A stretch of DNA of 48,327 nucleotides from Gemmatimonadaceae bacterium (GCA_046597595.1 JBKJKH010000651.1:1-48327); one strand, 5' to 3'; counted from the stretch's first letter, positions 22,198-42,776 are shown. Notes: generated by a model not told the origin, from the sequence alone. A program made the numbers and translations.

Positions 22198-23468
22198 CTG
22201 GCATCCATGGATGGAACCTTCCAGACTGAACGCGGGCGCACAAAGCCCCGGACTTCAATGGGTCGGTAGTGATCGCCGCCGGTGGCCGCAACGTTCAAGG
22301 CCGAGAACGCCAGTGCGCGTTCCACCCAGTCCGCGGTCCATCCTGAAGAAACGCTGATTCCAACGTCGAGCACGTAGTCTCGCGGCAGGAGCGTTACATC
22401 GAGCTCCGCGACGATCTCGTGGATGCCTCGCTCGAGCGGAAAATACGGCGCGTCGCCGTCGACACTATGCACCGTGGCCACCCGCAGGCCGTCACGAGTG
22501 GAGATGCCAAGCTCGATCACCGCGTCGTCCATCGGCTTGAGCACCTCGAACAGCATCGATACGCGCACTGGCTGGCCCAGCAGCACCTGCGAGATAGGCG
22601 CGTCGTGCTGGTCGCGGAGCTCGACGCGCCGGAGGCGCGCATCACCATTCCCCATTCTGGTGGTTGCGTCCTCGATATCTCCATCCGCGCTTGCGTCGCG
22701 ATTGCCAAGGTATCGTGCGATGACGTCCGTCGGTGCGGCGTCCATTGTGATCCGCCCGCCCTCGATCAGCACCGCTCGCGAGCACAATCCCTGGACGGTC
22801 GGCATGTGATGGCTCACGAAGAGGATCGTGCGCCCCTGATTCGCGGCCGCGTCCATCCGTCCGAGACACTTCTTCTGGAACGCAGCATCTCCGACCGCGA
22901 GCACTTCGTCCACAATCAGAATCTCGGTTTCAAGATGCGCGGCAACGGCAAATGCCAGGCGCACGTACATCCCGCTCGAGTAGTGCTTTACCGGCGTATC
23001 CAGAAAATGCTCAACCTCGGAAAACGCCACGATCTCGTCGAAGCGCCGCGTGATCTCCGCGCTGCGCATGCCGAGGATTGCTCCGCTCTGATAGACGTTC
23101 TCGCGGCCGGTGAGGTCCATGTTGAATCCGGTGCCGACCTCGAGGAGCGATGCGACCCGGCCACGCATCGTGATGCGCCCGGTGGTGGGCCGCGTGATGC
23201 GGGCAAGCAGCTTGAGCAGGGTGCTCTTGCCGGCTCCATTCCTCCCGATGAAGCCGATGACCTCGCCGCGCGGAATATCGAGGGTCACGTCCCGCACGGC
23301 CCAGAGAATGTCCGAGCCATCGGATGCTCCACGATTGCGCAAGCGGTCCCATGGCGCCGCCAGGGCGTGCGCGACCCGCGCGAGCGGACCTCCGGTCGCT
23401 CGCACGCGCGGGAGCCCGATGCGATACCGCTTGCCCACTCCCTCCATGCGCACGGCCGGCTCAGTCAT
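22194..23468 (-). CDS. wzt: Polysaccharide ABC exporter ATP-binding protein (Wzt/TagH-type) with C-terminal extension of about 170 aa
   Basis: Walker A GRNGAGKSTLLKLL, signature YSSGMYVRLAFAVA, Walker B ILIVDEVLAVGD, H-loop FVSHH. Residues after about 250 (GNGDARLRRVELRDQHDAPISQVLLGQPVRVSMLFEV...) resemble the Wzt C-terminal beta-sandwich. Adjacent to the ABC-2 permease. Confidence 0.88.
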   Translation of the reverse strand: MTEPAVRMEGVGKRYRIGLPRVRATGGPLARVAHALAAPWDRLRNRGASDGSDILWAVRDVTLDIPRGEVIGFIGRNGAGKSTLLKLLARITRPTTGRITMRGRVASLLEVGTGFNMDLTGRENVYQSGAILGMRSAEITRRFDEIVAFSEVEHFLDTPVKHYSSGMYVRLAFAVAAHLETEILIVDEVLAVGDAAFQKKCLGRMDAAANQGRTILFVSHHMPTVQGLCSRAVLIEGGRITMDAAPTDVIARYLGNRDASADGDIEDATTRMGNGDARLRRVELRDQHDAPISQVLLGQPVRVSMLFEVLKPMDDAVIELGISTRDGLRVATVHSVDGDAPYFPLERGIHEIVAELDVTLLPRDYVLDVGISVSSGWTADWVERALAFSALNVAATGGDHYRPIEVRGFVRPRSVWKVPSMDAR

Positions 23469-23474
23469 CCGGCG

Positions 23475-24311
23475 TCAGACCACATCGGCGAACGTCTCCT
23501 CGGTACGGGAGAAGTAGACCACGCCGATCCAGAGCAGCAATGCCCCCTCCAGCGCGACTGCCACCAGCCCGGACGCCGGGAAAGTCCCGACGCCGAGCAC
23601 CGCCCAGCGGAAACCATCCATGAGTCCCGTCAGCGGATTCAAGTCGTACAGCGGACGCCACTGCGCGGGAATGAGCGACGCAGCATACAGGATCGGCGAC
23701 GCAAAGAGCCACACCTGCATCGTGAACGGCATCACGTAGGTCACGTCGCGATGGCGGACATTCACCGCAGCCAGGCACAGCCCAAGTCCCATCGCCACGA
23801 GGAACGCCAGCAGCAACACGACGGGAACGAACAGCATCGTCCAGCCCGGCATCCAGCGGAAATAGAACATCATGCCGACGAGCGCGACGAACGACACCGC
23901 AAAATCGAGAAACGACGGCATTGACGTCGAGAGCGGGATGATCAGGCGCGGGAAGTAGACCTTGGAGAGCAGGCCCGCGTTCGCGACCAGGCTGCCCGAC
24001 ACGCGTTGCAGTACCGCGGAGAAGAATTGCCAGAGGAGCAGACCTGAAAAGACGAACAATGCGTACGGCACACCATCGGACTGAAGCTTCGCGATGCGCC
24101 CGAAGATGATCGTGAACACCAGCGTCGAAAGCAGCGGCTGCACGATGGCCCACGCAGCGCCGAGCACGGTCTGCTTGTACTTGAGCGCGACGTCCCGCCA
24201 CGCGAGAAAAAACAGCAGGTCCCGATAGGCCCACAGGTCACGCATCTTCGGGAGGGACAGCGTTCCTGCCGGCTCGATGACGGTCACGTCCTCAACGGCG
24301 GTCGTGCTCAT
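23475..24311 (-). CDS. wzm: Polysaccharide ABC exporter permease (ABC-2 type, Wzm/TagG)
   Basis: LWAYRDLLFFLAWRDVALKYKQTVLGAAWAIVQPLL is the typical ABC-2 N-terminal signature. About 6 TM segments. Directly upstream of wzt. Confidence 0.88.
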   Translation of the reverse strand: MSTTAVEDVTVIEPAGTLSLPKMRDLWAYRDLLFFLAWRDVALKYKQTVLGAAWAIVQPLLSTLVFTIIFGRIAKLQSDGVPYALFVFSGLLLWQFFSAVLQRVSGSLVANAGLLSKVYFPRLIIPLSTSMPSFLDFAVSFVALVGMMFYFRWMPGWTMLFVPVVLLLAFLVAMGLGLCLAAVNVRHRDVTYVMPFTMQVWLFASPILYAASLIPAQWRPLYDLNPLTGLMDGFRWAVLGVGTFPASGLVAVALEGALLLWIGVVYFSRTEETFADVV

Positions 24312-25051
24312 GACGAGACGTCCGCGACCTGGACAGGCTTGCCGAGCATGGCTCGCGTCGCGTCCGGACCGCAGCGCATCAGCGCGTCGACGGCGGACAG
24401 GCCGGCATGGAAGTCCGGTGTTCCTTGCACGTATTCAGGATGCAGGAAGGGCTGATACAACAACTCGACGCCTGCGTTGGCAAAGACTGGATCGCTCTGG
24501 TACCCGGCCGCGCCGTTGCCGCACAAATACGCAGAGCCTCCCGTAGCACGCACGAGAGTCACCAGCCGCTCCGTGCTCGTTCCCACTGCGCCAAGCGCTG
24601 ACGAGGCAACCATGCGCGACGCGTCCAGGCCGAGCAGCGTCGCAAGACTGCGTAATCCGGCAAGGTTCAGGTCGAGCAGCGACCCCGTCGCGGGTTCCAG
24701 CATTCCTTTCAGGGTCGGAAAGATGATTTCGAAAAACGGCGCCCGGCGATAGCTCTGCTCGATCGTCCTCAGGAGCTTCGCGCGCCATGGGGTCCGCTCG
24801 TCGATCTCCATCTCACGGATCTCACGAAGCCCCGTGTACGCGCGCACCACTGGTACGGTGGCCCACCATGGTTGCCCCCCAACCAGTATGCGCACGCGAT
24901 TGACCCAGCTGCCCGTGCCCCCGGCGCCCTTCGAGAACTGGACGTCGTCCAGATACACGAAGGTGTCGGCCCGCGCCATCTTGTCGAAGTACCCCAACCA
25001 CGGCAGGAAATTCGGCTGATGGATCGCAACGACCGGTCGAAGGGACATCAC
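24308..25051 (-). CDS. WbqC-like family protein (function unknown, glycan-locus associated)
   Basis: VAIHQPNFLPWLGYFDKMARADTFVYLDDVQFSKG is the characteristic WbqC-family N-terminal signature. Its stop overlaps the wzm start by 4 nt. Confidence 0.7.
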   Translation of the reverse strand: MMSLRPVVAIHQPNFLPWLGYFDKMARADTFVYLDDVQFSKGAGGTGSWVNRVRILVGGQPWWATVPVVRAYTGLREIREMEIDERTPWRAKLLRTIEQSYRRAPFFEIIFPTLKGMLEPATGSLLDLNLAGLRSLATLLGLDASRMVASSALGAVGTSTERLVTLVRATGGSAYLCGNGAAGYQSDPVFANAGVELLYQPFLHPEYVQGTPDFHAGLSAVDALMRCGPDATRAMLGKPVQVADVSS

Positions 25052-25168: not shown

Positions 25169-26524
25169 CTAGCTCGCTTCTGGACCCTCGGGCGCGAACT
25201 CCGCGCGAAGGATGCCCATGACGATGACGTCTTCCCGCCGGTCATCGATGTTGGCCGCTTGGCGCAACAGACCTTCCTCCACGAAGCCGACGCGCCGGTA
25301 GGCCCGAATCGCCGCGACATTCGACGAAAACACATGCAGGAATATCCGCTGCAGCTCCAGCGGGCCAAAGCCGATTGCCAACAGCGCGTGCAGCGCGGCC
25401 GTTCCGGCGCCGTGCCCCTGCGCTGAGCGCTCACCAATGCGAATCTGAAGTTCGGCGGTTCGATGCACTGGATCGATGCTGTGGAGCTGGCAACTCCCGA
25501 TGAGCGCGCCATCCCGCGTTCGAATGCCGCGAATCACCACATCCTCTCGATTGCGGATGCGCGAAAACCACGCCGCGTGCTCGGTCTCGCTGACGGGGCG
25601 GAATGCCGAGCTGCGCAGGACAAGCTCGCGATCATTGATCCACGCGAAGAGCGTCGGCGAATCTTCGTCTCTCAAGGGCTCGAGGACCACGGTGGCTCGA
25701 GCCTTCGAGCGGTGCGTCTCCGTGGACGCGAAGCGTGGGTCCACTTTCCGCTCCGCAAGCGGTGGAAGCGGAGCACCGCGCCGAATCCCGATGTGGCGCC
25801 GCTCGCCGTATGCCGCTTCCCGCTCAGCGAGACTGCCCTCCATCATGTCGAAGGCGTGAGCCAGCATGGCGTCCCACTTGTCCGGCACGCTGCACCGCGC
25901 CGCGGTCCACCATTCCGGGTGAATCAGCAATTGCAGGAGCGGGTATCGCCGATCCGTGAGCAGGGCTGCAGGGTGACCTTCCTTCCAGTTCGTGTTGCTG
26001 TCGGACAGGTAGTGGAAGCCGGCGACGTCGGCCCGGTCGTACGTATTGATGCAGTTGGTACGGATTTCGTTCGCCAATACGCGCGGCCCAGGCTGATGAA
26101 AGGAAACGACGTCCACCGCGGCACCAAACTCCGCGGCGAGCTGCGCGCGCTCCTCGTCCACGCGAAGTGCAATATCGTCGACGCCTGCGCTCGTGTACCG
26201 CCGCTCGTCGAAGTGCAGGCCCAGCCAGTGCCCGAGCGAAAGGATCTCGCTGACGAGGCGATGCGCCGGCTCGGCAAGAGCGTTGTACATCGTCGAGCGC
26301 AGCAGGATGAAGTACGTGCTGCGCACCCCTTCATCGGCCTCGATGCGCGCAAGGTCGAGGCTCGCGACCAGGTCGTTGTCGCAATCATGACGCAGCACAA
26401 GCGACGGATGGACGCCGCTCCGGCTTGCGTTCATGTCACCAAAGGCGATGAACGCATAACCCGCCGCCTTACCGGCGCGCAGGATATCGCGGTAGTCGTC
26501 GTGCGTGAACGCGGGCGAGGTCAC
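25169..26524 (-). CDS. Two-domain protein: N-terminal ArnD/CE4-like (polysaccharide deacetylase/deformylase-like) domain fused to C-terminal GNAT N-acyltransferase (RimL/PseH-like)
   Basis: N-terminal LVLRHDCDNDLVASLDLARIEADEGVRSTYFIL resembles the ArnD-type RxDVD...StFF motif. C-terminal VVLEPLRDEDSPTLFAWIND ... IGERSAQGHGAGTAALHALLAIGFGPLELQRIFLHVFSSNVAAIRAYRRVGFVEEG is a GNAT A/B motif region. Confidence 0.6.
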   Translation of the reverse strand: MTSPAFTHDDYRDILRAGKAAGYAFIAFGDMNASRSGVHPSLVLRHDCDNDLVASLDLARIEADEGVRSTYFILLRSTMYNALAEPAHRLVSEILSLGHWLGLHFDERRYTSAGVDDIALRVDEERAQLAAEFGAAVDVVSFHQPGPRVLANEIRTNCINTYDRADVAGFHYLSDSNTNWKEGHPAALLTDRRYPLLQLLIHPEWWTAARCSVPDKWDAMLAHAFDMMEGSLAEREAAYGERRHIGIRRGAPLPPLAERKVDPRFASTETHRSKARATVVLEPLRDEDSPTLFAWINDRELVLRSSAFRPVSETEHAAWFSRIRNREDVVIRGIRTRDGALIGSCQLHSIDPVHRTAELQIRIGERSAQGHGAGTAALHALLAIGFGPLELQRIFLHVFSSNVAAIRAYRRVGFVEEGLLRQAANIDDRREDVIVMGILRAEFAPEGPEAS

Positions 26525-27408
26525 AGCATGCCGCGCAGGCCTTCACGCAACGACACGGCAGGTTTCACGCGTAGAATGTCGCGCATCCGGCTCGTATCCG
26601 CCACGAGATCTGCGCCGGGCGTCGAGAGGTGCCGAACTCGAGGCGGTACTCCTGTCACCTCACCGATAACGTGGACGAGTTGTGAGAAGGTGACGACCTC
26701 GTCGCCCGCGATGTTGAATGTGCCTCCCACGTCGTCCGACAGCACAGGGGCGAAGATGCGGGCCGCGTCAGACACGTGGATGGGATTCAGGCGCATGCCT
26801 GGATCACCCTCGATCGTTACCTCCTCGCCGGCACGCACGCGCGCGAGCAGGTTGGACATCAGCAGGCCAGTCTGCCCGGCGCCGTAGAGAAAAAAGAAAC
26901 GCAGCGTGGTCGTGCGCAGGTCGTGCGCATAATTCCGCACCAGGAGTTCGGCGGCGTACTTGCTCGTGAAGTAGAAATTGAGCCGGCTGGCGGGATTGGC
27001 TTCGAGGAACTTCTCGGGGCTGACGCTGTCACTTTCGACGAAAGGAGCACTGCCGAGCCCGTAGAGACCGCCCGTAGACGCGAGCACGAATCGCTCCGCG
27101 CCGGAGCGGCGTGCGTACTCCAGCAGATTCAGTGTGCTCGAGACGTTGACGTTGAAGATGGAATGGGCCTGCTCTGGAAACTCCCGATATTCGCGCGCCT
27201 GCGCGAGGTGGATGACTGCATCGACCCGGGAGGGGAGGCGTGACTCGTCCAGCGGCCGGGCGAGGTCCGCTGCGATGCACTCGACACCGCGAGGGCAATG
27301 CGCCGGCAGGTCGCGCACAATGGCTGTGACCTCGTGCGTTTCCCGCAGGGACTCGACGAGGGTGCTGCCGAGGAAGCCGGCGGCACCCGTGATCAGGACG
27401 CGGCTCAC
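26521..27408 (-). CDS. NAD-dependent epimerase/dehydratase/reductase (extended SDR)
   Basis: MSRVLITGAAGFLGSTLV, ASTGGLYG, YFTSKYAAE (YxxxK). 4-nt overlaps on both sides. Confidence 0.85.
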   Translation of the reverse strand: MSRVLITGAAGFLGSTLVESLRETHEVTAIVRDLPAHCPRGVECIAADLARPLDESRLPSRVDAVIHLAQAREYREFPEQAHSIFNVNVSSTLNLLEYARRSGAERFVLASTGGLYGLGSAPFVESDSVSPEKFLEANPASRLNFYFTSKYAAELLVRNYAHDLRTTTLRFFFLYGAGQTGLLMSNLLARVRAGEEVTIEGDPGMRLNPIHVSDAARIFAPVLSDDVGGTFNIAGDEVVTFSQLVHVIGEVTGVPPRVRHLSTPGADLVADTSRMRDILRVKPAVSLREGLRGML

Positions 27409-28289
27409 TGGTCAGCGCGCACGCCGCGCGCGGTGATACCGTAGAAGTCCACGAGCGTATGCACGACGCGAAGCCCGGCGGCCGCGAACCACTCCTGCAC
27501 TTCGTCAGGCGTGTGGCGGGCGCAGAGTTGCGGATGATACCAGTCGTAGTTGATCGCCGTATTGTCGTTGTGCGAGAGCGTGGGGTTCCAGTAGCACTTC
27601 ATGAAGAAATGGTAGAGCAGGCGCTGCACGTCGTAGGTGCCTGCCGGGATCTCGAGCAGGTCTACGCCCTCCACGTCCACGGTCGTGTTGAGTGCGGCCA
27701 ACGCACGGCCCAGGGCAGTGATCTGCGCACATGCGCGCATCGCCTCGTCGTACGGCAGGGGCGCGATGCGGTCGCGCACGTAGTCGTCGACGAACTCCCG
27801 AACCGGCGCTTTTTGCTTGTACACGTAAATGGCGAGCTCACCCCCCGGCGACAGCCGACGTGCGAGATTCAGGAACGCATCCCGTGGCGACGTCGTGTGA
27901 TGCAGGACTTCCTGGCAGTAGATGAAGTCAAAATCGCCAAGAGCAGTCAGGTCGGCGAGGAGATCGGCCGTTTCGATGCGCACATTGTCGTAGCGTTGGA
28001 GGTTTCTCAGCGCGACGTCGGCGGCCACGAGGTCGATGCCGACCACTTCAGTCGTCGCGGGGTCGGTAAGCTCGCGGAGCAAGGCAGTCACCCGGCCATT
28101 GCCACATCCGGCATCGAGAATGCGACGAACGCCAGCGAGATGCGCGCGCAGATCATTCGACGAGGCGAACCCGTTGCGACTCAGAATCCACGTCTGGAAG
28201 TCGGAACCGTCCCGCAGCGTCTCCGTGAACGCCAGGTCAGGGTTTTCGTGCCACTTGTCATGAAAGCTTGTCGCGGTGTTGTCTGACAT
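27405..28289 (-). CDS. Class I SAM-dependent methyltransferase
   Basis: Motif I ILDAGCGNGRVTALL, FDFIYCQEVLHH, LSPGGELAIYVY. Confidence 0.85.
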   Translation of the reverse strand: MSDNTATSFHDKWHENPDLAFTETLRDGSDFQTWILSRNGFASSNDLRAHLAGVRRILDAGCGNGRVTALLRELTDPATTEVVGIDLVAADVALRNLQRYDNVRIETADLLADLTALGDFDFIYCQEVLHHTTSPRDAFLNLARRLSPGGELAIYVYKQKAPVREFVDDYVRDRIAPLPYDEAMRACAQITALGRALAALNTTVDVEGVDLLEIPAGTYDVQRLLYHFFMKCYWNPTLSHNDNTAINYDWYHPQLCARHTPDEVQEWFAAAGLRVVHTLVDFYGITARGVRADQ

Positions 28290-28323: not shown

Positions 28324-29727
28324 TCAGGTGCGATCTCTCTCGGGAGATGCAGGGTGTTGCTCGAACTCGCCTGTTACCGCATTCGTGAAGAAATGACGCG
28401 GGAGTCGCGACGTGACCAGGGGGTGCTCAACCGTTGGCCGCCGCCGGTTGTACTCCGAGGTCAGGGGATGGAAGAGATTCATCAAGTCTCGCTTCTCGCC
28501 CCTGAGGATGACGTCGTACACCGCTCCGAAGAAAAACTGGGCGGTCTCGTAGGAATGATACTTCTCGGCGTACTGCCGACCCGCACGGCCCAGCTGTTCG
28601 CGCAGCTCAGGATGCATCACGAGGGCACGCAGCACATGCACCAGCGTCTCCGGGGTCGACGAGACCACCGGACATTCGTCAAGATAGGAATATCGGCGAA
28701 ACAGGGTGGCGTAAAATCGCGGTTCCAGGTTCGACAGGACCGGCAGTCCGCTCGCCATGCCCTCAATGCCGTTGAGCGCATAGCCATAGCTGATGAACTG
28801 TTCGGCAAGGATGTCCACCGTCTGCATGGTGTCCTGCACCACGGTGTTCTTCACCCCTTCCAGCAGCACCAGCTCAACTTTCAGCCCCTCCGCGCGAAGC
28901 CGCGCTACGGCGTCGAGAAGGAACTCTGTTCCCTTGAAGGCGCGGTGATTCGGGGTATGCAGAATGCGCACGGTCGCGTTCACGCCGTTCGCGGAAGAAT
29001 AGGAGTCCTTCGCGCGCCACGACTCTGTGTCGATTGCCAGTGTGCTGTTCTGCGTGATATCCCAGCGACCAAATCCGTCGATCATGGACCCGGGAAGGAC
29101 CGCGTCGGCGTGCTGCAGCCAGTACTTGACCCGTCGAGTGGTTTCTTCCTCCTTGAATGCGAGATATCGATAGTCGGAGAGCAGGACGTGCCTCACGGAC
29201 GCCTCGCTGATCTGTGAATACAAATAGGCGTCGTACCCGACGGGGAGCACCACCACCTTGATCCCGAAGTAGTGCAGCAGTTGCGCCTCCCACCGCCAGA
29301 GCCGCGTCGCGCCGAGAGGGCCGCCGCTGAACGGGATATGGAGGACGCTGGCGTTCTTGACGATGTGGTAGAACACGAAGTACGGAACCAGCACCAGCCG
29401 TAGACTCAGCGGGTAGATGCGGTGCGATGGCACCACGTCGTCGTAGTAGAGGTCGAAGTCCTCGCGCTGGCTGATGGAATAGTGGTGCGTCATCAGCGTG
29501 ACAGAGTCCCAGCCGACGCGTCGCATGGCTTCGGACCAGTACTTGTTGTTCGTGATGGGCATGGGTCCCCAAATCAGTTGCGCCCGGCGTTTCCGCGCGA
29601 GGACGCAAGCAACCCAGATACCGGCGATCCACAGTCCAGCGATGAGTGGCCAGAGTGGTACGCGGATCACGGCATGGACGAGGCGCCAGGGGAAGAGGAC
29701 AATCCTCCGAATCACGTTCGCTGTCAT
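28324..29727 (-). CDS. Unassigned GT-B-like putative glycosyltransferase with N-terminal TM anchor (paralogue of 20770-22197)
   Basis: N-terminal hydrophobic VIRVPLWPLIAGLWIAGIWVACVLA. The C-terminal GT-B-like block is shared with 20770-22197 (see there). Confidence 0.5.
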   Translation of the reverse strand: MTANVIRRIVLFPWRLVHAVIRVPLWPLIAGLWIAGIWVACVLARKRRAQLIWGPMPITNNKYWSEAMRRVGWDSVTLMTHHYSISQREDFDLYYDDVVPSHRIYPLSLRLVLVPYFVFYHIVKNASVLHIPFSGGPLGATRLWRWEAQLLHYFGIKVVVLPVGYDAYLYSQISEASVRHVLLSDYRYLAFKEEETTRRVKYWLQHADAVLPGSMIDGFGRWDITQNSTLAIDTESWRAKDSYSSANGVNATVRILHTPNHRAFKGTEFLLDAVARLRAEGLKVELVLLEGVKNTVVQDTMQTVDILAEQFISYGYALNGIEGMASGLPVLSNLEPRFYATLFRRYSYLDECPVVSSTPETLVHVLRALVMHPELREQLGRAGRQYAEKYHSYETAQFFFGAVYDVILRGEKRDLMNLFHPLTSEYNRRRPTVEHPLVTSRLPRHFFTNAVTGEFEQHPASPERDRT

Positions 29728-30687: not shown

Positions 30688-31335
30688 CTACGGTTCCATC
30701 ACGACGTGCATCGTCCACTCATACAGCGGGTAGTCGTGCAGCAGGGCCACGGAGCGCGAGATGCGCCGCTTGCAGAAATCCAGAAAGTAGGAGGGGTCGC
30801 CGTAGAACAATTGAGGGTCGCGCCAATCCACGTAGCTGGAGAGGAGATTGAATGCAAACCCCTTCCTGGACGTCTCGCCCAGGCGGAGGATCGTCTGCTC
30901 GATGTAAGCACGCCACTCGTCATCGGTCGCCGCGAAGCGCACGTTGAATGTCCCTGATACGAAGGCGTAGTCACAGGAGCTATCGATCTCCGCACTCTGC
31001 ACGAGCGCGACGCGAGGGTCGCTTCCATACAAGTTGCGTGCGGCAGCCAGCATCTCGGGACTGATGTCGTAGCCGCGGTACGCGGCCAACTGGACGCCGG
31101 GAATCGCATCGAGGAATGGCAACATGGCTCCGTACCCGCATCCCCAGTCATTCACGGTGATCGCGGCACCGCCGGGTCGGATCACTTGCGCGAGCTTCTC
31201 GAACCGCAACTGTTGCGATGCGGCATCCTTCCAGCCGACGCTCTTCGATGAGAGGCCATGCCTGCGAAGATTCTCGCCATATAGCTCTGAAAGCCCCTCC
31301 AGCGTTACGCGGACGTGATCCGATGAATCAGCCAT
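30688..31335 (-). CDS. Class I SAM-dependent methyltransferase (small, 215 aa)
   Basis: Motif I VNDWGCGYGAMLPFL, YRGYDISPEMLAAAR, DYAFVSGTFN. Confidence 0.8.
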   Translation of the reverse strand: MADSSDHVRVTLEGLSELYGENLRRHGLSSKSVGWKDAASQQLRFEKLAQVIRPGGAAITVNDWGCGYGAMLPFLDAIPGVQLAAYRGYDISPEMLAAARNLYGSDPRVALVQSAEIDSSCDYAFVSGTFNVRFAATDDEWRAYIEQTILRLGETSRKGFAFNLLSSYVDWRDPQLFYGDPSYFLDFCKRRISRSVALLHDYPLYEWTMHVVMEP

Positions 31336-31338
31336 GGA

Positions 31339-32001
31339 TCACAGCGAAATCTCGTCCGTGGACCTTTTGTCGGGTCGCGTCCGCTCGGTGACGAAGAGTT
31401 CCTTGTCACCCGTCGACTTCATGATGAGTGCACCGGCTCCGATAACGCACGATTGGCCAATGGTGACGCCGTCGCGCAAGGTTGCATTCACGCCGACAAA
31501 ACTGAAATCACCAATGCGGCAATTCCCGCTCACTACCACGTGCGAAGTGATGAAGCAGTGATCGCCGATCACGGAGTGATGGCCGATGTGGTTCCCACTC
31601 CACAGCACGGTATCGCTGCCAATCGTCACGAACGGTTGAATCGTGTTGTCCTCGAAGACGAATGTATTGTCGCCCACGACGTTGTTGCTCCAGAGCGTGA
31701 CACTGGGGTGCACGAAGCTCACGAGGGAATACCCTCTTGCCTTCACGTCCCCGTACAATCTTGCGCGCACCTGATTGAGCTTCGCGTAGCCGACGGCGAC
31801 AAACATTGCCACCTCGTGCGGCGGAAAGTGATGCTCGATCTCATCCAGCGGGATCAGGGGCAGGCCGAGAAAGTGATCGTCCTTCACATAGTCCCGGTCA
31901 GCCGTGAATCCCACGACGTCGTACGCCTTGAGTTCCGTGAAATAGCAATGCACGACTTCGGCGAACAGGCTGGTGCCCACGATGACCACCTTGCGAGTCA
32001 C
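31339..32001 (-). CDS. NeuD/PglD-family sugar N/O-acyltransferase (left-handed beta-helix)
   Basis: N-terminal Rossmann-like KVVIVGTSLFAEVV. Hexapeptide-repeat C-terminus (IGSDTVLWSGNHIGHHSVIGDHCFITSHVVVSGNCRIGDFSFVGVNATLRDGVTIGQSCVIGAGALI). Confidence 0.8.
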   Translation of the reverse strand: MTRKVVIVGTSLFAEVVHCYFTELKAYDVVGFTADRDYVKDDHFLGLPLIPLDEIEHHFPPHEVAMFVAVGYAKLNQVRARLYGDVKARGYSLVSFVHPSVTLWSNNVVGDNTFVFEDNTIQPFVTIGSDTVLWSGNHIGHHSVIGDHCFITSHVVVSGNCRIGDFSFVGVNATLRDGVTIGQSCVIGAGALIMKSTGDKELFVTERTRPDKRSTDEISL

Positions 32002-33077
32002 GAGACCTCCACGGGATTCGGTGCGCGGGGTAGCAGGCGGCTGAAAGGCGCCACGAAAAAGAACGGGAACTCGCGCAGGAGTTCCTCACGTGTGGCCTGC
32101 AAGATCGAGCGATCGAGCACCCGCGTATAGTAGGAGTAGTGGCGTTCCACCGTTCCCCACCGGCGTTTATAGTCGTACACGCCGGCCTGGGTGAGCCAGG
32201 TTCCACCCCAGTTCCACCAGCGACAGCCGCGCGCAACTGCGTCAACCATTGCGCGAAACACGAGCAAGCTGAGTGGTTGTGCGGAACGATGCGCCTCGAC
32301 TGTCGCCGGCGTGAAATATTCGACCGTGCCGTTGAAATAAAAACAGAGCAAGGCTGCGATCGGTTCGCCATGGAGTCGCGCGATCCACACGCCGTAGCCG
32401 GATGTCTCGAAATGCCCGGCAATCTCCGCAAAGAACTCCCACGACTTGGCGAGGCCGCCAATCGCCTGCATGTTCTCGACGTGAGTTTCATGCAGAAACC
32501 GCAGTGCGTCGTCGCCATGCGCCAGCGAGACGTCAATGCCTTCTTTCATCGCGCGGCGAATATTGCGCGGCCGAGGGTCGGAAAAGCTGCCGAGCAATTG
32601 CTGTTCGACGTCCGGACCATGCGCGGGAAGGGGCGTCAACTGTCCGATCCGTTCGTCGCGAATGGTGAAGCGCGCATCATCTTCGTATAGCGCCCGCTCC
32701 GCCGTGAATGGCGAAGTCACGATCGTCGCGGCCACGCAGTTATCCGCCTCGGCGCACGCATGGAACGCATCGATCAATGCACGCGCTGCGTCGGGTCGCG
32801 TCGTAATCACGCCGCCGTTGCTGCCATAATACGGCAACGAGTTCAACACCCGGCCGAGCGCGCCGCGCTTGCTGACCATCGCCGGCAATACCCCGACGAT
32901 CGCGCCGCCGGCATCGCGCGCGATGAGGTAGCGAGGCGTCGCGCCTGTGATCGCGACGAGGAGTGTGCGATAGGGGCTGCTGGCGTACAGGAGCGCATCC
33001 TCGTTGGTGAGGAGAAATGCGTCGTACTCGAGGGACGCCGTCGGGCTCAACTCCGACACGTGAATCTCGCCGCTCAT
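31998..33077 (-). CDS. FemAB-family / Acetyltransf_6-like protein (putative aminoacyl- or acyl-transferase)
   Basis: AIVGVLPAMVSKRGALGRVLNSLPYYGSNGGVI, and later AALLCFYFNGTVEYFTPATVEAHRSAQPLSLLVFRAM ... TQAGVYDYKRRWG. This is the pattern I recall for FemAB-like proteins of EPS loci. 4-nt overlap with the downstream NeuD-like gene. Confidence 0.6.
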   Translation of the reverse strand: MSGEIHVSELSPTASLEYDAFLLTNEDALLYASSPYRTLLVAITGATPRYLIARDAGGAIVGVLPAMVSKRGALGRVLNSLPYYGSNGGVITTRPDAARALIDAFHACAEADNCVAATIVTSPFTAERALYEDDARFTIRDERIGQLTPLPAHGPDVEQQLLGSFSDPRPRNIRRAMKEGIDVSLAHGDDALRFLHETHVENMQAIGGLAKSWEFFAEIAGHFETSGYGVWIARLHGEPIAALLCFYFNGTVEYFTPATVEAHRSAQPLSLLVFRAMVDAVARGCRWWNWGGTWLTQAGVYDYKRRWGTVERHYSYYTRVLDRSILQATREELLREFPFFFVAPFSRLLPRAPNPVEVS

Positions 33078-33086
33078 GCCGTGCCG

Positions 33087-34265
33087 TCAGCGAGCCGCGC
33101 CGGCTGCCGCCAGCTCGACCAGCGAGCCCACTACAGTCTCTGACTCCGCGTTGGTCATCCCCGCAAACAGCGGCAGCGTGATCGAGAGCTGCTGCGCCAG
33201 ATAGGCAACGGGATAGTCCGCCGGCGTGATGCGGTACTTGTTCGCGTAGAACTGGGTGTGTGCCGCAGAATGCGTACCCTGGCGCGTCGTGATGCCGCGC
33301 TCTTCCAGCGCCGTCATGAGGGCATTGCGCTGCTGGTGCAGGTCTTCGCAACGAGCCAGTGTCGGCGCTTCCGGCTGGTACACGCACACGTACGACTGTT
33401 GCCCGTGCACATAGTCCACGTGCCGGAACGGTGTCTGGAGCCACGGCACGTCCGCGAGCGCGGCATCGTACCGCGCGGCGGCGGCACGGCGCGACGCCTG
33501 GATGGCCTGTGACTTCCGCATCTGGCTCACCCCGAGGGCGCCCTGGATGTCCGTCATCCGGAAGTTGAAGCCGAGGTGCGGATACTCCGCGAGCAGGAAT
33601 GACTTCGCCTGGCCGTGACGCTGGAAGTCCGAGCGGCTCGCGCCGTGATCGCGCAACGAGCTGCACAGGGTTGCGCCCTCATCCGAGGCCGTCGTGATCA
33701 TGCCACCTTCGCCGGTGGTGATCGCCTTGCGCGGATGAAAGGAGAAGCACCCGTAGTCACCGAACACACCGGCATGCGTTCCCTTGTACCAGGAATCGAA
33801 TGCACACGCGGCGTCTTCGACCACCAACAGCCCGTGCTTCTTCGCGATGGCCATGATCGGATCCATGTCCGCGAGCAACCCGAACAGGTGGACCGGCATG
33901 ATCGCCTTTGTGCGCGACGTGATCCGCTCCTCGATCTTCGTGACATCGATGTTGAACGTGGCGAGGTCAATATCCACGAACACCGGCGTGGCCCCGACAT
34001 ACTCCACCGCGTTGGCCGTCGAGATCCACGTGAACGCCGGCACCAGCACTTCGTCCCCGGGTCCGATCCCCAGCGCGGCGAGCGCGATGTGCAGCGCGGT
34101 CGTACACGACGTCGTGGCGAGGCTGTGCCTGGCCCCGCTCATGTCGCAGAACAGTTTCTCAAACTCGCGAACAAACCTGCCTTGCACCACCCAGCCGGAC
34201 TTGAGCGGCTCCTGGATGATCGCGAAATCGGTCTCGTCGAAAACCGTCTTGGTTATTGGAATCAC
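33087..34265 (-). CDS. DegT/DnrJ/EryC1/StrS-family PLP-dependent sugar aminotransferase
   Basis: Start moved to GTG 34265 (VIPITKTVFDETDFAIIQEPLKSGWVVQG, the canonical family N-terminus). CFSFHPRKAITTGEGGMI (PLP-Lys). The ORF opens at 34424, but the extra 53 aa are Arg-rich and not family-like. Confidence 0.85.
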   Translation of the reverse strand: MIPITKTVFDETDFAIIQEPLKSGWVVQGRFVREFEKLFCDMSGARHSLATTSCTTALHIALAALGIGPGDEVLVPAFTWISTANAVEYVGATPVFVDIDLATFNIDVTKIEERITSRTKAIMPVHLFGLLADMDPIMAIAKKHGLLVVEDAACAFDSWYKGTHAGVFGDYGCFSFHPRKAITTGEGGMITTASDEGATLCSSLRDHGASRSDFQRHGQAKSFLLAEYPHLGFNFRMTDIQGALGVSQMRKSQAIQASRRAAAARYDAALADVPWLQTPFRHVDYVHGQQSYVCVYQPEAPTLARCEDLHQQRNALMTALEERGITTRQGTHSAAHTQFYANKYRITPADYPVAYLAQQLSITLPLFAGMTNAESETVVGSLVELAAAGAAR

Positions 34266-34429: not shown

Positions 34430-36031
34430 ATGCCCCTCAAGCTGACCGAACCGGTTTTCTGTTTCACTGCCGACATGGACTGGAATGCGGATTCGGCGAT
34501 CCGCGCAGAGACCGACCTGTTCGCCCGCCACGGCGCGAAGCTCACGGTGTTCGCGACGCATGCACCGCCGCTGCTGCAGGAGTCGCCGAACCTGCAAGTG
34601 GGAGTGCACCCCAACTTCCTCCCGGGCTCCACGCATGGGGGGACGATGAAAGAGGTGCTCGATCACGTCTTCGGCCTCTATCCCGAGGCCGAGACGTTCC
34701 GGTCACACTCGTACTTCGACAACCAGCAGCTGTCGGCGGAGATGAGCCAGCGCGGGATCAGGTACGACGCGAATCTCTGCCTCTACCTGCAGGACGGGCT
34801 GGCCCCACTCGCGCATTGTCACGGTTCGTGGCGCTTCCCGAGCTTTCTGGATGACAATATCCACTGGTTTCACGGCGGCTCCTGGAAGCTGGAGGACATC
34901 AAGGCAAAGCTGTTTACTCCCGGCCTCAAGATCTTCAATTTCCACCCGTACCCTGTCGCGCTGAACATCCCCACCCTCGCGTACTATCACGCGAAGCGGT
35001 CGCTTCTCAAGACACTCTCTCCAGACGACATCGCGGCGCATCGGTACAGCGGGGCCGGACCGGAGACGTTCCTGGAGGAACTCCTGGCGTTTCTCCAGCC
35101 GCGGGCCGAAACACACCTGCTCCGGGATCTCTACCGGGCCCACATTGACGACGCCGGTGAGCGACCGCGGGACATCGCTGGCCGGCCGGCGGTCAAGGCG
35201 GATTACGCGACGGCCAGCGAGGAGGAGCGCAAGGCGCTGGTCCGGGATCAGTACAACCGCATGGACGCGACCAACATCTACATCACGTCCCGCGACTTCC
35301 ACCTTCGTGAGCTCGAGATCGCGGCCATCAAGCGCAGGATCTCTTCCGGCAGTATCCTCGATTGCGGATGTGGCAACGGGTACACGCTCCTGTCCCTTGC
35401 CAAGGTGCTGCCCGGCGTCCGCATGAAAGGCGTGGACTTCTCCGAAAACCTCATTGCCGGCGCCAATACGCTGAAGGCGCAATTCGCAGCGGAGCTCAAG
35501 TCGACGCCCGAGTTTGAGGTGGACGACATCTTCCGGTATATCGCGCACGACGCCGAAACGTTCGATGTGATCATCACCGAGCGCGTGATTGTCAACCTTC
35601 CCACCGAAGCGCTCCAGGAGGAGATTATCCTGGGCATCATCCGAAAGCTGAAGCCCGGTGGCAGCTACCTCATGGTGGAAGGAACGCTCGAAGGCTTCGC
35701 GCGGCTGAACGTGCTGCGCGCCGATGCCGGTCTCGAAACCATTCCTGACGTGTATCCGGGGAACGAGAGCTCGAAGAAGCCGGAAGAAGATCGCATTCGG
35801 GCCATCGTCCAGCAGTCAGGCGTCGCCGAGATTGTCGCGGTCGACAACTTCAGCTTCTACAATCTCGTCTCCAAGATTGTGCATCCGCTGCTCGTCGCGC
35901 CGGAGCAGCCGCAATTCTCAGCGAAGATCAATCAATTTGCCGCGCTGGCGCAGGAGGGGCTCTCGCGGGCAGGCATCGCGCTGCCCGATATCGGCGCCGG
36001 AAAGCTGTTCGTAATTCGCCGCATGCCGTAG
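34430..36031 (+). CDS. Two-domain protein: N-terminal ArnD/CE4-like domain (tentative) fused to C-terminal class I SAM methyltransferase
   Basis: N-terminal VFCFTADMDWNADSAIRAETDLFARHGAKLTVFATH ... VGVHPNF. C-terminal motif I ILDCGCGNGYTLLSL, FDVIITERVIVNL, LKPGGSYLMVEG. A single-gene plus-strand block between two minus-strand blocks. Confidence 0.6.
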   Translation: MPLKLTEPVFCFTADMDWNADSAIRAETDLFARHGAKLTVFATHAPPLLQESPNLQVGVHPNFLPGSTHGGTMKEVLDHVFGLYPEAETFRSHSYFDNQQLSAEMSQRGIRYDANLCLYLQDGLAPLAHCHGSWRFPSFLDDNIHWFHGGSWKLEDIKAKLFTPGLKIFNFHPYPVALNIPTLAYYHAKRSLLKTLSPDDIAAHRYSGAGPETFLEELLAFLQPRAETHLLRDLYRAHIDDAGERPRDIAGRPAVKADYATASEEERKALVRDQYNRMDATNIYITSRDFHLRELEIAAIKRRISSGSILDCGCGNGYTLLSLAKVLPGVRMKGVDFSENLIAGANTLKAQFAAELKSTPEFEVDDIFRYIAHDAETFDVIITERVIVNLPTEALQEEIILGIIRKLKPGGSYLMVEGTLEGFARLNVLRADAGLETIPDVYPGNESSKKPEEDRIRAIVQQSGVAEIVAVDNFSFYNLVSKIVHPLLVAPEQPQFSAKINQFAALAQEGLSRAGIALPDIGAGKLFVIRRMP

Positions 36032-36058: not shown

Positions 36059-37957
36059 TCACGCTCCGTCTGGACGCTGGCCGTCGCGGAAGATCCGCAG
36101 CCACCACTCGAAGCACACCAGCGACCAGATCAGCAATCGCCGATTCTGCTTCCCGGTGAAATGTTCGTCGAGCAGGGAGCGGACGGTGTCCGGCTGCAGG
36201 TAGTCATACACGCGCGCCCGATCGGTGGCGAACGTCGAACGGATATAGTCGATGCTCTGGCCCTTGAACCAGCTGGCATCGGGCGCGGAAAACCCTTGCT
36301 TCGCGCCGTGCGCGTATTGCGTCGGCACATAGCGCTCGAGCGCCTTGCGCAGGATGATCTTGCCATCGCTGGTCTGCTCGAAATACTGCCTGGACTTTTC
36401 CCCCGGCGTATTCTCATTCAGCCGGACCACTTCGGTCAGGTTCCGGAGCTTGTGCCTGACCGGCACGCGCATCGCAAAGTCAACGAGGTCGTTGTCGAGA
36501 AAGGGCACGCGCGTCTCCAGCCCATGCGCCATGCTGAGTTTGTCCTCGACGGCGAGGAGCCCCTGCAGGAACGTCCGTGACTCGAAGTACAGCGACCGAT
36601 TCACGTAATCCTCAGGCGACGGCACCCCGGTGACATGCCCGTTCATGACTGCGGCGAACACGTCCTTCGTCTGGTGGCCCAGCACGCGAGGGTAGGCGCT
36701 GCCCTGGAAGAACGAGCCCTTGAGGCTGTCCGGAATCAGGCGCTGCCAGTATTTGTAGTACTTGTCGAGATATTCCGCCGGGCCGTCATTGTTCACAGCG
36801 CGGTAATACCGCCATGGATATCCGGCAAACAACTCGTCGCCGCCCGCTCCGGAGAGCACCACCTTCACGAACTTGCTCGCGAGCCGCGACACGTAGAAGT
36901 TCGGGTACGATTGCCCGACGCGGAGATCCTCGAGATGCCAGATGAGCTGCGGCATCACCCGCTCCATGTCGCCAGCCTTGAGGACGACTTCATAGTGTTC
37001 CGTGCCGTAGCGGCTGGACAGGAACTCCGCCTTCGTGCGCTCGTCAAAGCCCAACTCCATCCCGGAGGCGGACGAGAGGTCGAAGCCGCACGTGAAGGTC
37101 TTCAGGTTCTTGAAGCTCTTGCCGGCAAGCGCGGTGATCGCGCCCGAGTCCATGCCGCCGCTGAGATACGCCCCGATCTCGACGTCGCTCATGAGCTGGC
37201 GGTTGACCGCCTGCTCGAACAGGCGGTCCAATTCCTCGACATACTCGGACTCGGTGCCCGTGTCCCCCTCGCGAAAGTCGTAGTCCCAGTAGCGAGAAAG
37301 GCGCGGCGCGCTCTGGCCGCCCAGCGACACCGTCATCGTGTGCGCCGCCGGCAGCGTCTTCACACCCTCGAAGAGCGTGAGGTCCGAAAAGATGTTCTGG
37401 AACGAGAAGTATTCGTTCAGCGCCTCGATCGAAACATCCACCGAGAAGTCGGGAAGCTGCTGGATTGACTTGATCTCGGAGCCGAACGCGAACGTGTGGC
37501 CCTTCGCGTAGTAGTACAGCGGCTTGATACCGTAGCGGTCACGCGCCAGGAACAGCTCGTTCGTTCTATTGTCCCAGATGGCGAAGGCGAACATCCCGTT
37601 GAAGCGCTTCACGCAATCCGCGCCCCATTCGACATAGGCGCGCAGTACCACTTCCGAGTCAGTCCGTGAGCGGAAGGGGTGACCCTTCGCCTCGAGCTGA
37701 GCCCGCAACTCGAGATGGTTGTAGACCTCGCCATTATAGGTGATCACCACCGAGCCGTCCTCCGTCTGCATGGGCTGATGGCCCAGTGGGGAGAGGTCGA
37801 TGATCGACAGCCGGCGATGTCCCAGGCCGATGAACGAGTTCGTCCAGAACCCCTCACCGTCGGGACCGCGGTGGCGCACCACGTCGGTCATCCGTCTCAA
37901 CTGGGAAATCGAGACGGGACGGCCGTCCACGTGAAACAGGCCGGTGATTCCGCACAT
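36059..37957 (-). CDS. AsnB-family glutamine-hydrolysing amidotransferase (paralogue 5)
   Basis: MCGITGLF, HRGPDGEG, HRRLSIIDLS, YNGEVYNH, TDSEV, PP-loop LSGGMDSGAIT, SGAGGDE, VEDKLSMAHGLETRVPFLDN, AKQGFSAPD. 632 aa. Confidence 0.92.
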   Translation of the reverse strand: MCGITGLFHVDGRPVSISQLRRMTDVVRHRGPDGEGFWTNSFIGLGHRRLSIIDLSPLGHQPMQTEDGSVVITYNGEVYNHLELRAQLEAKGHPFRSRTDSEVVLRAYVEWGADCVKRFNGMFAFAIWDNRTNELFLARDRYGIKPLYYYAKGHTFAFGSEIKSIQQLPDFSVDVSIEALNEYFSFQNIFSDLTLFEGVKTLPAAHTMTVSLGGQSAPRLSRYWDYDFREGDTGTESEYVEELDRLFEQAVNRQLMSDVEIGAYLSGGMDSGAITALAGKSFKNLKTFTCGFDLSSASGMELGFDERTKAEFLSSRYGTEHYEVVLKAGDMERVMPQLIWHLEDLRVGQSYPNFYVSRLASKFVKVVLSGAGGDELFAGYPWRYYRAVNNDGPAEYLDKYYKYWQRLIPDSLKGSFFQGSAYPRVLGHQTKDVFAAVMNGHVTGVPSPEDYVNRSLYFESRTFLQGLLAVEDKLSMAHGLETRVPFLDNDLVDFAMRVPVRHKLRNLTEVVRLNENTPGEKSRQYFEQTSDGKIILRKALERYVPTQYAHGAKQGFSAPDASWFKGQSIDYIRSTFATDRARVYDYLQPDTVRSLLDEHFTGKQNRRLLIWSLVCFEWWLRIFRDGQRPDGA

Positions 37958-37971
37958 CTACGCGTCGCGCC

Positions 37972-38961
37972 TCAGGCCATCGCCGCGCGTTCGGCAACGA
38001 GCGACTTGTGCGCATTGCGCCACTCGATCAAGCGTTCCAGCCCGTCGCGAAGATCGATCGTCGTGCGAAACTTGATCTCTTTCTCAGCCTTCGCGGTGCT
38101 GCCGATGCGGTTCGTCACGAACGTCTTCCCGGCTGGCTCATACTGGATGGGCAGGTGCGTCCCGGTGAGCTCGCGGATCACTTCGACCAGTTCCTTGAGC
38201 GACGTGCGCGTCCCACTGCCAACATTGTAGAACTGGTCGGTCGCCGACGCCTTCAGCGCACACACGTTCGCACGCGCGCAATCGGAGACGTAGATGAAAT
38301 CGTACGCCTGCGATCCGTCACCGTAGAGCACGGGGGGCAACCCCTGGTCGATGCGGTCGAGGATCTTCATGATCACGGCGATGTACGTGCCCTTGTAGTC
38401 CTGACGGGCGCCGTAGACGTTCATGTAGCGGAGGCCAACGTAATTCAGGCCATTCCGATCGTGGAACGCCCGTGCCATCGCCTCCCCGGCAATCTTCGTG
38501 GCGCCGTAGAACGTCCGGTTGTTGAACGGGTGCTCCTCGGTCATCGGCAATTCGACGGCATCGCCGTAAACCGACGCCGAGGACGAATACACGAGCCGCT
38601 TGATGTTGTGATCGCGGCACGCCTCGAGGACGTTGAACGTCCCGCGGATGTTGACGTCGAAGGCGGCGCGCGGGTAGTCGTAGCACTGGAGCAACCAGAG
38701 CGCCGCAAGGTGCACCACGTTGTCGCTCTCCTTCACCGCCGAATGCAACACGTCCGACTGGAGAATGTCGCCACCCGCCTCGAAGATTCGCACGCGCGGG
38801 TCGCTGAGCGACTCTTCCAGGTTCTCGCGTGAGCCGCGCGCGAAGTTGTCGTAGACGATCACCTGCGCGACGTCCTCCTTCAGGAGCTCGTCGACGACGT
38901 GCGATCCAATAAAGCCGGCGCCTCCGATAACGAGCACCTTGGCGCCTCGCAAATCATTCAT
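37972..38961 (-). CDS. NAD-dependent epimerase/dehydratase (GalE-like extended SDR)
   Basis: KVLVIGGAGFIGSHVVDELL, YSSSASVYG, YGATKIAGE (YxxxK), YDFIYVSDCA. Confidence 0.85.
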   Translation of the reverse strand: MNDLRGAKVLVIGGAGFIGSHVVDELLKEDVAQVIVYDNFARGSRENLEESLSDPRVRIFEAGGDILQSDVLHSAVKESDNVVHLAALWLLQCYDYPRAAFDVNIRGTFNVLEACRDHNIKRLVYSSSASVYGDAVELPMTEEHPFNNRTFYGATKIAGEAMARAFHDRNGLNYVGLRYMNVYGARQDYKGTYIAVIMKILDRIDQGLPPVLYGDGSQAYDFIYVSDCARANVCALKASATDQFYNVGSGTRTSLKELVEVIRELTGTHLPIQYEPAGKTFVTNRIGSTAKAEKEIKFRTTIDLRDGLERLIEWRNAHKSLVAERAAMA

Positions 38962-42692: not shown

Positions 42693-42776
42693 CCGGCGCG
42701 GCTCGATTCGAGACATTTCGTGGTTCGTATCCGGCCGAAGTGTCCGGCCTGTCCATCCGTCCCTGACCTCCCTGGC

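Follow-up and report, generated by a model that had tools for sequence, protein, structure and literature searches.

Fem-fold, tRNA-dependent transferases are known to act on peptidoglycan precursors (FemX, FemA, FemB, MurM), in natural product pathways (VlmA, PacB, DhpH, DhpK, Orf11), and on lipids (MprF), proteins, sterols and DNA (PMC12945691). The closest functional precedent for aminoacylation of an amino sugar is Orf11, together with Sbb17/Sba18: in the BD-12 pathway, Orf11 takes glycine from Gly-tRNA and adds it to the amino sugar of streptothrisamine (PMC12945691), and this glycine is N-modified afterwards by a flavin adenine dinucleotide (FAD) enzyme (PMC10156733). Here we describe a FemAB-like protein of 359 amino acids (aa) encoded in a stretch of DNA from a Gemmatimonadaceae bacterium (GCA_046597595.1 JBKJKH010000651.1:1-48327; the whole 48,327-nucleotide stretch is called the window below), within a gene run at 30688-34265. 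An earlier note on this DNA had read the run as a pathway in which the FemAB-like enzyme adds an amino acid to a newly made sugar amine. The novelty of such an enzyme is its acceptor class, a nucleotide sugar or a surface glycan, Fem-type chemistry itself being already known.

Amino sugars with N-aminoacyl and N-(N-acetylaminoacyl) groups are common in O antigens (PMC10609480; PMC7685785), and neither of these sources names an enzyme family for their aminoacylation; the E. coli O161 'Lea3 alanyltransferase' is likewise named without a protein family (PMC7685785). When all complete E. coli genomes were searched for distant DNA matches to an AT-rich member of the present family, nothing turned up that would link it to O121, O114 or O161. 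Glycine is also mentioned in MASC, the spore-coat polysaccharide of Myxococcus xanthus (PMC12288465). Our literature search found no paper that ties Fem-like enzymes or charged tRNA to the sugars of polysaccharides, the precedent coming from antibiotic biosynthesis, in agreement with the earlier note's remark that tRNA-dependent aminoacylation of a polysaccharide sugar was undemonstrated. Amide-linked N-acetylglycyl, alanyl, N-acetylseryl, aspartyl and threonyl groups on Qui4N, Qui3N, Fuc4N and legionaminic acid have long, for decades, been known from O antigens and capsules, and the FemAB-like ExoG/ExoI (exoG/exoI) have reportedly been considered in connection with the glycine that the Myxococcus spore coat contains.

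We think it somewhat probable that the 359-aa protein transfers an amino acid from charged tRNA, as an amide, to the free amine of a nucleotide-linked amino sugar made by the genes around it. More tentatively, its subfamily may be the missing enzyme of a widespread tRNA-dependent route, in which the product of the gene cassette would be a 4-(N-capped aminoacyl)amino hexuronamide-type sugar with caps that are swapped between lineages. The evidence comes from the protein, from its conserved neighbours and from the locus.

Profiles and the predicted fold place the protein in the Fem superfamily, whose members are tandem-GNAT enzymes. The sequence alone matches the FemAB profile (PF02388) with 35.9 bits against a cutoff of 24, over residues 239-309 only, and all 43 relatives in our family alignment pass both PF02388 (best E = 4.6e-16) and Acetyltransf_6 (PF13480). 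A Protein Data Bank (PDB) search with the single 359-aa sequence found no match, and a family profile was needed; run against all PDB sequences, this profile found FemX of S. aureus (8.9e-10) and FemX of W. viridescens (FemX_Wv; about 1e-6), with Sbb17 (7e-3), Sba18 (0.03) and FemA (0.21) as the remaining credible matches. The same search gave no credible acetyl-coenzyme A (acetyl-CoA) enzyme, its only two further matches having E values of about 1. The AlphaFold2 (AF2) model (pLDDT 95.1, pTM 0.91) and its Foldseek matches show two tandem GNAT domains with a central acceptor cleft, as is typical of Fem enzymes. Its top 11 Foldseek matches in the PDB were FemX_Wv, Sba18/Sbb17, S. aureus FemX and FemA, at template modelling (TM) scores of 0.66-0.81, with 0.73/0.77 against FemX_Wv and 0.66/0.81 against streptothrisamine-bound Sba18/Sbb17. 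Among the matches listed, a second tier at TM 0.57 or below held MprF/aaPGS, which are tRNA-dependent, as well as VipF and other tandem GNATs. The FemAB membership for which the earlier note had proposed a profile search is thus supported by PF02388, by all 43 aligned relatives, by the PDB profile matches and by the fold.

Judged by its sequence relatives, the protein represents a sizeable, distinct subfamily that has no specific name and is spread over many phyla. More than 1000 relatives were found at 41-58% identity in many phyla, the nearest being in Gemmatimonas (57% identity), and a hidden Markov model (HMM) search of 1.84 billion representatives returned 788 clusters (50% identity) at E <=1e-30, a number that rose to 3,473 at E <=1e-10. 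Cultured bacteria with a family member include Hydrogenophaga, Polaromonas aquatica and Ectopseudomonas khazarica. Conservation across the 43-member alignment is very high, the motifs NSLPYYGSNGG, VEYFTP, WNWGGTW and GVYDFKKRWG being invariant. Databases call the relatives 'GNAT family N-acetyltransferase', 'FemA/FemB family' or 'hypothetical', none of these names being specific. The closest named family is TIGR03019, the XrtA/PEP-CTERM FemAB proteins, to which the protein does not belong (E = 1e-26, 93.6 bits against a cutoff of 260.35).

Several positions of the FemX_Wv active site have counterparts in the family. The HMM alignment places K304, invariant in 43 of 43 sequences, and the Tyr or Phe at 303 on F304-K305 of FemX_Wv, where K305 is the catalytic Lys (PMC12945691). 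In the same alignment the invariant K211 falls on R211 of FemX_Wv; the invariant Y254 aligns with FemX_Wv Y254, whose Y254F mutant was deposited as 1xf8, and the basic helix PRPRNIRKA (169-177) aligns with SKTKSKIKRP in the basic helix of FemX_Wv (167-178). In FemX_Wv, R211 and Y254 line the cavity for the uridine diphosphate (UDP)-linked substrate UDP-MurNAc-pentapeptide, where we take R211 to have a role from the FemX mutagenesis literature.

A different donor would be used if the protein were a tandem-GNAT N-acyltransferase that depends on acyl-CoA or an acyl carrier and places an ordinary acyl group on the amino sugar with no tRNA involved. Acetyltransf_6 is indeed the strongest Pfam match of the single sequence (55.1 bits against a cutoff of 22), the label that NCBI gives to relatives is 'GNAT family N-acetyltransferase', and the acetyl-CoA tandem GNATs VipF, the clavulanate tandem GNAT and MAB_4324 stand lower in the fold list. 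The name of PF13480 is, however, generic, and we know of no evidence on the donor of its members. The Q/R-x-x-G-x-G/A loop that binds the acetyl-CoA pyrophosphate after beta-4 is absent from both GNAT halves, in the protein as in the family consensus: on inspection, residues 257-272 (PATVEAHRSAQPLSLL) and 118-131 (TIVTSPFTAERALY) carry no Gly-x-Gly/Ala element. Moreover, the credible sequence matches and the top 11 folds are all tRNA-dependent, while the listed acetyl-CoA tandem GNATs reach TM scores of only 0.37-0.52; the Fem catalytic Lys and the aromatic residue before it are invariant; and the cassette already has a dedicated acetyltransferase. An acetyl-CoA-type GNAT, which the earlier note had named as an outcome that would refute it, is therefore disfavoured because the CoA loop is absent and all close sequence and fold matches depend on aminoacyl-tRNA, and we regard the acyl-CoA reading as quite unlikely. 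Charged tRNA would be the most likely donor of the 359-aa protein, indirect evidence for it being the conserved basic helix at 169-177, which aligns with that of FemX_Wv.

Compared with its best-studied relative, FemX_Wv (UDP-MurNAc-pentapeptide:L-alanine transferase; 1ne9, 4ii9), the protein shares a tandem GNAT architecture without the coiled-coil insertion, the active-site positions described above (with Lys in place of R211) and a UDP-linked acceptor, which is known for FemX and proposed here. It differs in having only about 13-14% identity, in its own motifs NSLPYYGSNGG and WNWGGTW and in its place in an amino-sugar cassette with aminotransferase (DegT), amidotransferase (AsnB) and short-chain dehydrogenase/reductase (SDR) genes, whereas the acceptor of FemX is the Lys side chain of the peptidoglycan precursor. 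Orf11 and Sbb17/Sba18 (9wqw, 9wqx, 9wqy) share the Fem fold, and their reaction puts an amino acid from aminoacyl-tRNA onto the amine of an amino sugar. Unlike the present protein, they serve antibiotic biosynthesis in Streptomyces and use a free small molecule instead of a nucleotide sugar as acceptor; the sequence match to Sbb17/Sba18 is marginal (E = 0.007), and their chains are shorter (285-288 resolved residues).

The TIGR03019 genes resemble this one in their exopolysaccharide setting, where DegT, a deacetylase and AsnB-like amidotransferases are close by, but the window showed no PEP-CTERM/exosortase genes. In a search of plasmids, the sole match was a PEP-CTERM FemAB protein on a Chelatococcus plasmid (28% identity), whose gene adjoins an XrtA polysaccharide deacetylase gene, with a DegT gene near. 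As this Chelatococcus arrangement shows, polysaccharide loci in which a Fem-like gene lies next to amine-generating enzymes form a broader pattern. The classical pathway in which DegT and NeuD-type enzymes act together (PglD/PerB/VioB N-acetylation of C4-amino nucleotide sugars) involves the same two enzyme families found here, but has no Fem gene between the pair and no partners of the AsnB-like amidotransferase and C4-type SDR kinds, both of which are obligatory in the present cassette.

The neighbours of the Fem gene were compared in 84 loci, 80 of them from one-genome-per-species contigs and the others found by exact-protein look-up, whose open reading frames (ORFs) were searched with the window proteins; a partner was counted when a homologue lay within 10 kb of the Fem gene. 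A cassette emerged whose order, usually on one strand, is SDR (SDR329 in the window), DegT, AsnB (AsnB632), Fem, NeuD, small methyltransferase and a 320-aa propeller-like protein. DegT homologues are present in 76/84 loci, AsnB in 74/84, SDR329 in 68/84 (55-74% identity), the small methyltransferase, which comes after NeuD, in 46/84 (40-55% identity), NeuD in 44/84, and the beta-propeller-like protein, after the small methyltransferase, in 43/84. Farther downstream, homologues of the glycosyltransferase GT467 were found in 26 of the 84 loci (40-51% identity), of SDR295 in 22 and of the methyltransferase MT294 in 21. Immediate neighbours were counted in 65 non-duplicate loci flanked by 3.5 kb or more on either side: AsnB stood directly upstream of Fem in 32 of them and DegT in 12, and NeuD stood directly downstream in 29. 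The cassette occurs in Gemmatimonadota, Nitrospirota, Bacteroidota, Verrucomicrobiota, Desulfobacterota, Cyanobacteria, Pseudomonadota and other phyla. Since partners recur, with order and strand usually kept, across 84 loci from many phyla, the arrangement is not due to chance.

This conservation also bears on whether the protein could be a cell-wall Fem enzyme that builds peptidoglycan precursor side chains and lies in a polysaccharide cluster by accident, as might be supposed from databases that name some relatives 'peptidoglycan bridge formation glycyltransferase FemA/FemB family'. In the window the gene overlaps or abuts sugar-modifying genes, the same partners are kept in dozens of phyla, the hosts are mostly of diderm lineages, and identity to true Fem enzymes is 13-18%; no mur or other cell-wall genes adjoin the Fem gene. 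We consider a cell-wall role very improbable.

In the window, SDR329 and AsnB632 lie upstream (36059-38961) and are cut off from the DegT-Fem-NeuD-methyltransferase run by a plus-strand gene for a WbmS-like deacetylase fused to a methyltransferase. Because SDR329 and AsnB632 are conserved partners, the AsnB-like gene being the one that accompanies Fem most constantly elsewhere, the four genes singled out by the earlier note form the distal half of a larger module; the genes themselves are real, but the unit had been drawn too small, with its SDR and AsnB members overlooked.

The gene that follows Fem is not always NeuD. In one locus (L009, 11047-11805) it is a formyltransferase, followed by WbmS-like, methyltransferase, GNAT and WbqC-like genes. 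In another (L017), an SDR comes directly after Fem, and a different hexapeptide acyltransferase comes next. In L030 (9309-13593) and its relatives, a gene resembling the small methyltransferase precedes Fem, with an FAD amine oxidase and a methyltransferase after it. In L086 (11047-12943), the cassette comes after Wzm-Wzt (with Wzt_C) and is followed by a hexapeptide transferase and a HisH/HisF-like amidotransferase pair. The acetyl-, formyl- and methyltransferases and the amine oxidase among the genes after Fem all act on a free amine, as expected if Fem installs a new one, the alpha-amine of the amino acid that it adds, and swapping of this gene could give a modular means of varying the end group of the added residue. 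Of 56 loci with 8 kb or more on each flank, eight have one DegT, no deacetylase, and Fem together with NeuD; Fem and NeuD acting in sequence fits these loci because they have one amine source and two N-acylating enzymes. The capping of the added residue, as the earlier note had it, agrees with the variant genes but less well with the known NeuD relatives, which act on the C4 amine of the sugar.

Indeed, the NeuD-like protein of the window has the hexapeptide repeats and scores as a member of the NeuD/PglB/VioB family, and its best solved relatives are PerB, PglB, PglD and VioB. These are C4-amine N-acetyltransferases, and so the C4 amine could be acetylated by NeuD while the Fem-type, tRNA-dependent transferase acts elsewhere, for example on an amine that the WbmS-like deacetylase would uncover, or on a sugar already carried by the lipid or built into the polymer. 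A WbmS-like deacetylase gene adjoins these genes in the window and occurs in 29/84 related loci, the genes of other loci being stand-alone ones of about 240 aa; the related PEP-CTERM FemAB gene lies beside the XrtA polysaccharide deacetylase; and many loci have two DegT genes. Against such an acceptor, Fem is linked to DegT in 76/84 loci as compared with 29/84 for the deacetylase, the eight well-flanked loci combine Fem and NeuD with a single DegT and no deacetylase, and the conserved Lys equivalent to R211 suggests a nucleotide-linked acceptor over a polymer. We judge it rather unlikely that the acceptor lies outside the C4 amine. The most probable acceptor, we infer, is the C4 amine that SDR329 and DegT would generate. 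The earlier proposal that the new DegT amine receives the amino acid agrees with the linkage of Fem to DegT, the acceptor nitrogen being ambiguous given the NeuD relatives and the adjacent deacetylase.

The WbmS family takes its name from the locus for the Bordetella O-polysaccharide cap, a glycan part reported to bear an unusual N-acylated triamino-uronamide. The cap there is a 2,3,4-triamino-galacturonamide derivative (PMC2615507). With a family member from a betaproteobacterium as query, the top 120 matches listed included no Bordetella protein. An acceptor that is always a 2,3-diacetamido uronic acid was also considered and rejected: WbpB/D/E homologues flank the cassette in 11/84 loci and are absent from the window.

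Putting the cassette together, we propose a pathway in which the enzyme families come from the data and the order of steps and the substrates are inferred. The AsnB-like enzyme would amidate C6 of a UDP-HexNAc-type uronic acid, the WbpP-like SDR would oxidise the sugar at C4, and DegT would transaminate it there; the Fem enzyme would then aminoacylate the new 4-amine, and the NeuD-like acetyltransferase, the small methyltransferase or both would cap the alpha-amine of the added residue. Finally, GT467, the candidate transferase for the modified sugar, would put the finished sugar into the O polysaccharide exported by the ABC transporter, possibly as a terminal cap. The C4 assignments follow the best solved relatives, which for SDR329 are the UDP-HexNAc(A) 4-epimerases 6dnt, WbgU and WbpP, and for DegT are perosamine synthase and ArnB, both C4 aminotransferases; SDR329 has the motifs SSSASVYG...YGATK and does not have the TDE motif of dehydratases. 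AsnB632 has the N-terminal Cys2 and scores 468 bits with TIGR01536, above its cutoff, and 470 bits with the PEP-CTERM amidotransferase model TIGR03108, below its cutoff. That its target is the C6 carboxylate of a uronic acid is a guess, and one may speculate that C6 amidation would also shield the 4-keto intermediate from decarboxylation.

A number of observations weigh against this pathway. No sugar 6-dehydrogenase was found in the window, and the uronamide part is therefore conjecture. Acetylation by PerB, PglD, PglB and VioB, the nearest solved relatives of the NeuD-like protein, takes place directly on the C4 amine of the sugar, which competes with the proposed order of steps. None of the organisms that carry the cassette was tied to a glycan of solved structure. 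Across the 84 loci, tRNA genes show no consistent linkage to the cassette, two unrelated ones having been seen, and four Pfam-annotated loci hold no paralogue of an aminoacyl-tRNA synthetase. Identity to characterised Fem enzymes is as low as stated above, and a weak point is that the best Pfam match of the single sequence is the generic Acetyltransf_6. The interpretation of the earlier note finds partial support: the Fem assignment holds, while the module is bigger than it had seen and the acceptor nitrogen is uncertain. With only two unrelated tRNA genes in the 84 loci and no synthetase, such genes were rejected as pointers to the donor and its amino acid.

The features of the locus are collected in the following table.

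Table 1. Cassette genes and neighbouring features of the Gemmatimonadaceae window, in order from right to left
Feature	Coordinates	Strand	Evidence
SDR329, first cassette gene	37972-38961	minus	Pfam Epimerase E = 1e-56; WbpP/WbgU/GalE-like C4 type
AsnB632, glutamine-dependent asparagine-synthase-like amidotransferase	36059-37957	minus	Asn_synthase 2e-90 and GATase_6/7
WbmS-like deacetylase fused to S-adenosylmethionine (SAM) methyltransferase	34430-36031	plus	PF22537 8e-36, residues 13-189; Methyltransf_31 3e-15, residues 308-417
DegT-family pyridoxal phosphate (PLP) aminotransferase, C4 type	33087-34265	minus	PF01041 DegT_DnrJ_EryC1 2e-110
Fem-superfamily tandem-GNAT protein, 359 aa	31998-33077	minus	PF13480 and PF02388 passed; profile, AF2, Foldseek
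NeuD/PglD-type hexapeptide N-acetyltransferase, 220 aa	31339-32001	minus	TIGR03570 178 bits against 160.8; PglD_N residues 4-83
Small class I SAM methyltransferase, 215 aa	30688-31335	minus	Weak Methyltransf_11/25/12 matches
Beta-propeller-like protein, 320 aa	29724-30686	minus	Sub-threshold GH32/GH43/GH130-like Pfam/NCBIfam; weak solved-structure matches
GT467, GT4-like glycosyltransferase	28324-29727	minus	Glyco_trans_1_2 1.6e-6; N-terminal membrane segment
MT294	27405-28289	minus	Pfam match
SDR295	26521-27408	minus	Pfam match
ORF adjoining Wzt, 257 aa, probably permease	23461-24234	minus	No family match
Wzt ABC-transporter ATPase	22194-23468	minus	C-terminal Wzt_C carbohydrate-binding domain

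In the ORF list, the DegT, Fem, NeuD and small methyltransferase genes are four tightly packed minus-strand genes, at the coordinates the earlier note had assigned to them. The DegT ORF ends at 33087; the start at 34265 that had been chosen for it is a GTG, the longest ORF extending to 34424. Read from the sequence, 9 nt separate the DegT stop codon from the ATG of the Fem gene, and the TGA of the Fem gene overlaps the NeuD GTG by 4 nt (GTGA), which bears out the 4-nt overlap noted before; the next junctions downstream of NeuD have spacings of 3 nt and then 1 nt. The four genes head a train of 16 consecutive minus-strand genes running from 34265 down to 17718, again as had been described. Since this train contains the Wzt ABC-transporter ATPase with its Wzt_C domain, glycosyltransferases and several methyltransferases, the window (G+C 60-67%) is an ABC-transporter-type O-polysaccharide locus. 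The Wzt_C domain and the at least six methyltransferase genes in the window point to a capped O polysaccharide exported by the ABC transporter, and because Wzt carries a carbohydrate-binding domain and the locus has many methyltransferases, the sugar made by the cassette may be the chain-terminating cap. The 320-aa protein, a fixed member of the cassette, could be a transferase of glycoside-hydrolase fold or else a processing enzyme.

Other features of the window were seen alongside the cassette. The 48-kb locus has five asparagine-synthase-like genes (63-1397, 4916-6850, 9179-11119, 14493-16463 and 36059-37957), the first of which encodes the synthetase domain only and lacks the glutamine amidotransferase domain; from their number, the glycan may well bear several amidated carboxyls or amidino groups. 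A gene for a WbqC-like protein (PF08889, 3e-62; 24308-25051, minus strand) adjoins the gene of a 451-aa protein (25169-26524, minus strand) with a PseH-like GNAT C-terminus and a 270-aa N-terminus to which no assignment could be made. Ten related loci likewise have a WbqC homologue, which lies 2.6-8.8 kb downstream of the Fem gene. WbqC is named after the E. coli O121 cluster, and the O121 O antigen carries N-acetylglycyl-Qui4N.

At the right end of the window lie a second, LegC-like DegT gene, an FAD enzyme gene and a gene for a 600-aa protein of CoA_binding_3 and SDR domains with WbpM/PglF-like architecture (42720-43943, 45244-46443 and 46449-48251), the FAD enzyme sitting between DegT and the 600-aa protein. 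The LegC-like DegT and the WbpM/PglF-like protein point to a separate 4-amino-6-deoxy sugar pathway there. The FAD oxidase at 45244-46443 was considered as a partner of the BD-12 Orf1 type and rejected, being an L-2-hydroxyglutarate oxidase equivalog; it probably marks the edge of the cluster and is probably unrelated to the glycan. In the closest Gemmatimonas genome (L004/L006, 20718-21122), the cassette adjoins a tetratricopeptide repeat (TPR)/GT9-like gene and fliW, and may serve flagellin glycosylation instead of O-antigen synthesis.

A Fem-type enzyme in a nucleotide-sugar cassette, by its looks soluble and well behaved, provides a concrete, purifiable candidate for the aminoacylation of glycan sugars. 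If the proposed reaction is true, charged tRNA would be a building-block donor for O antigens, capsules and possibly flagellin glycans, polysaccharides would join peptidoglycan, lipids, proteins, antibiotics, sterols and DNA among the non-ribosomal uses of aminoacyl-tRNA, and glycan decoration would be tied to the charged-tRNA pool. The family would then serve as an annotation marker for amino-acid-decorated glycans and as a tool for glyco-engineering. At the same time, caps (acetyl, formyl, methyl or oxidised) exchanged between lineages would vary the antigen, and the swap of the gene after Fem suggests a simple route to diverse surface epitopes in bacteria.

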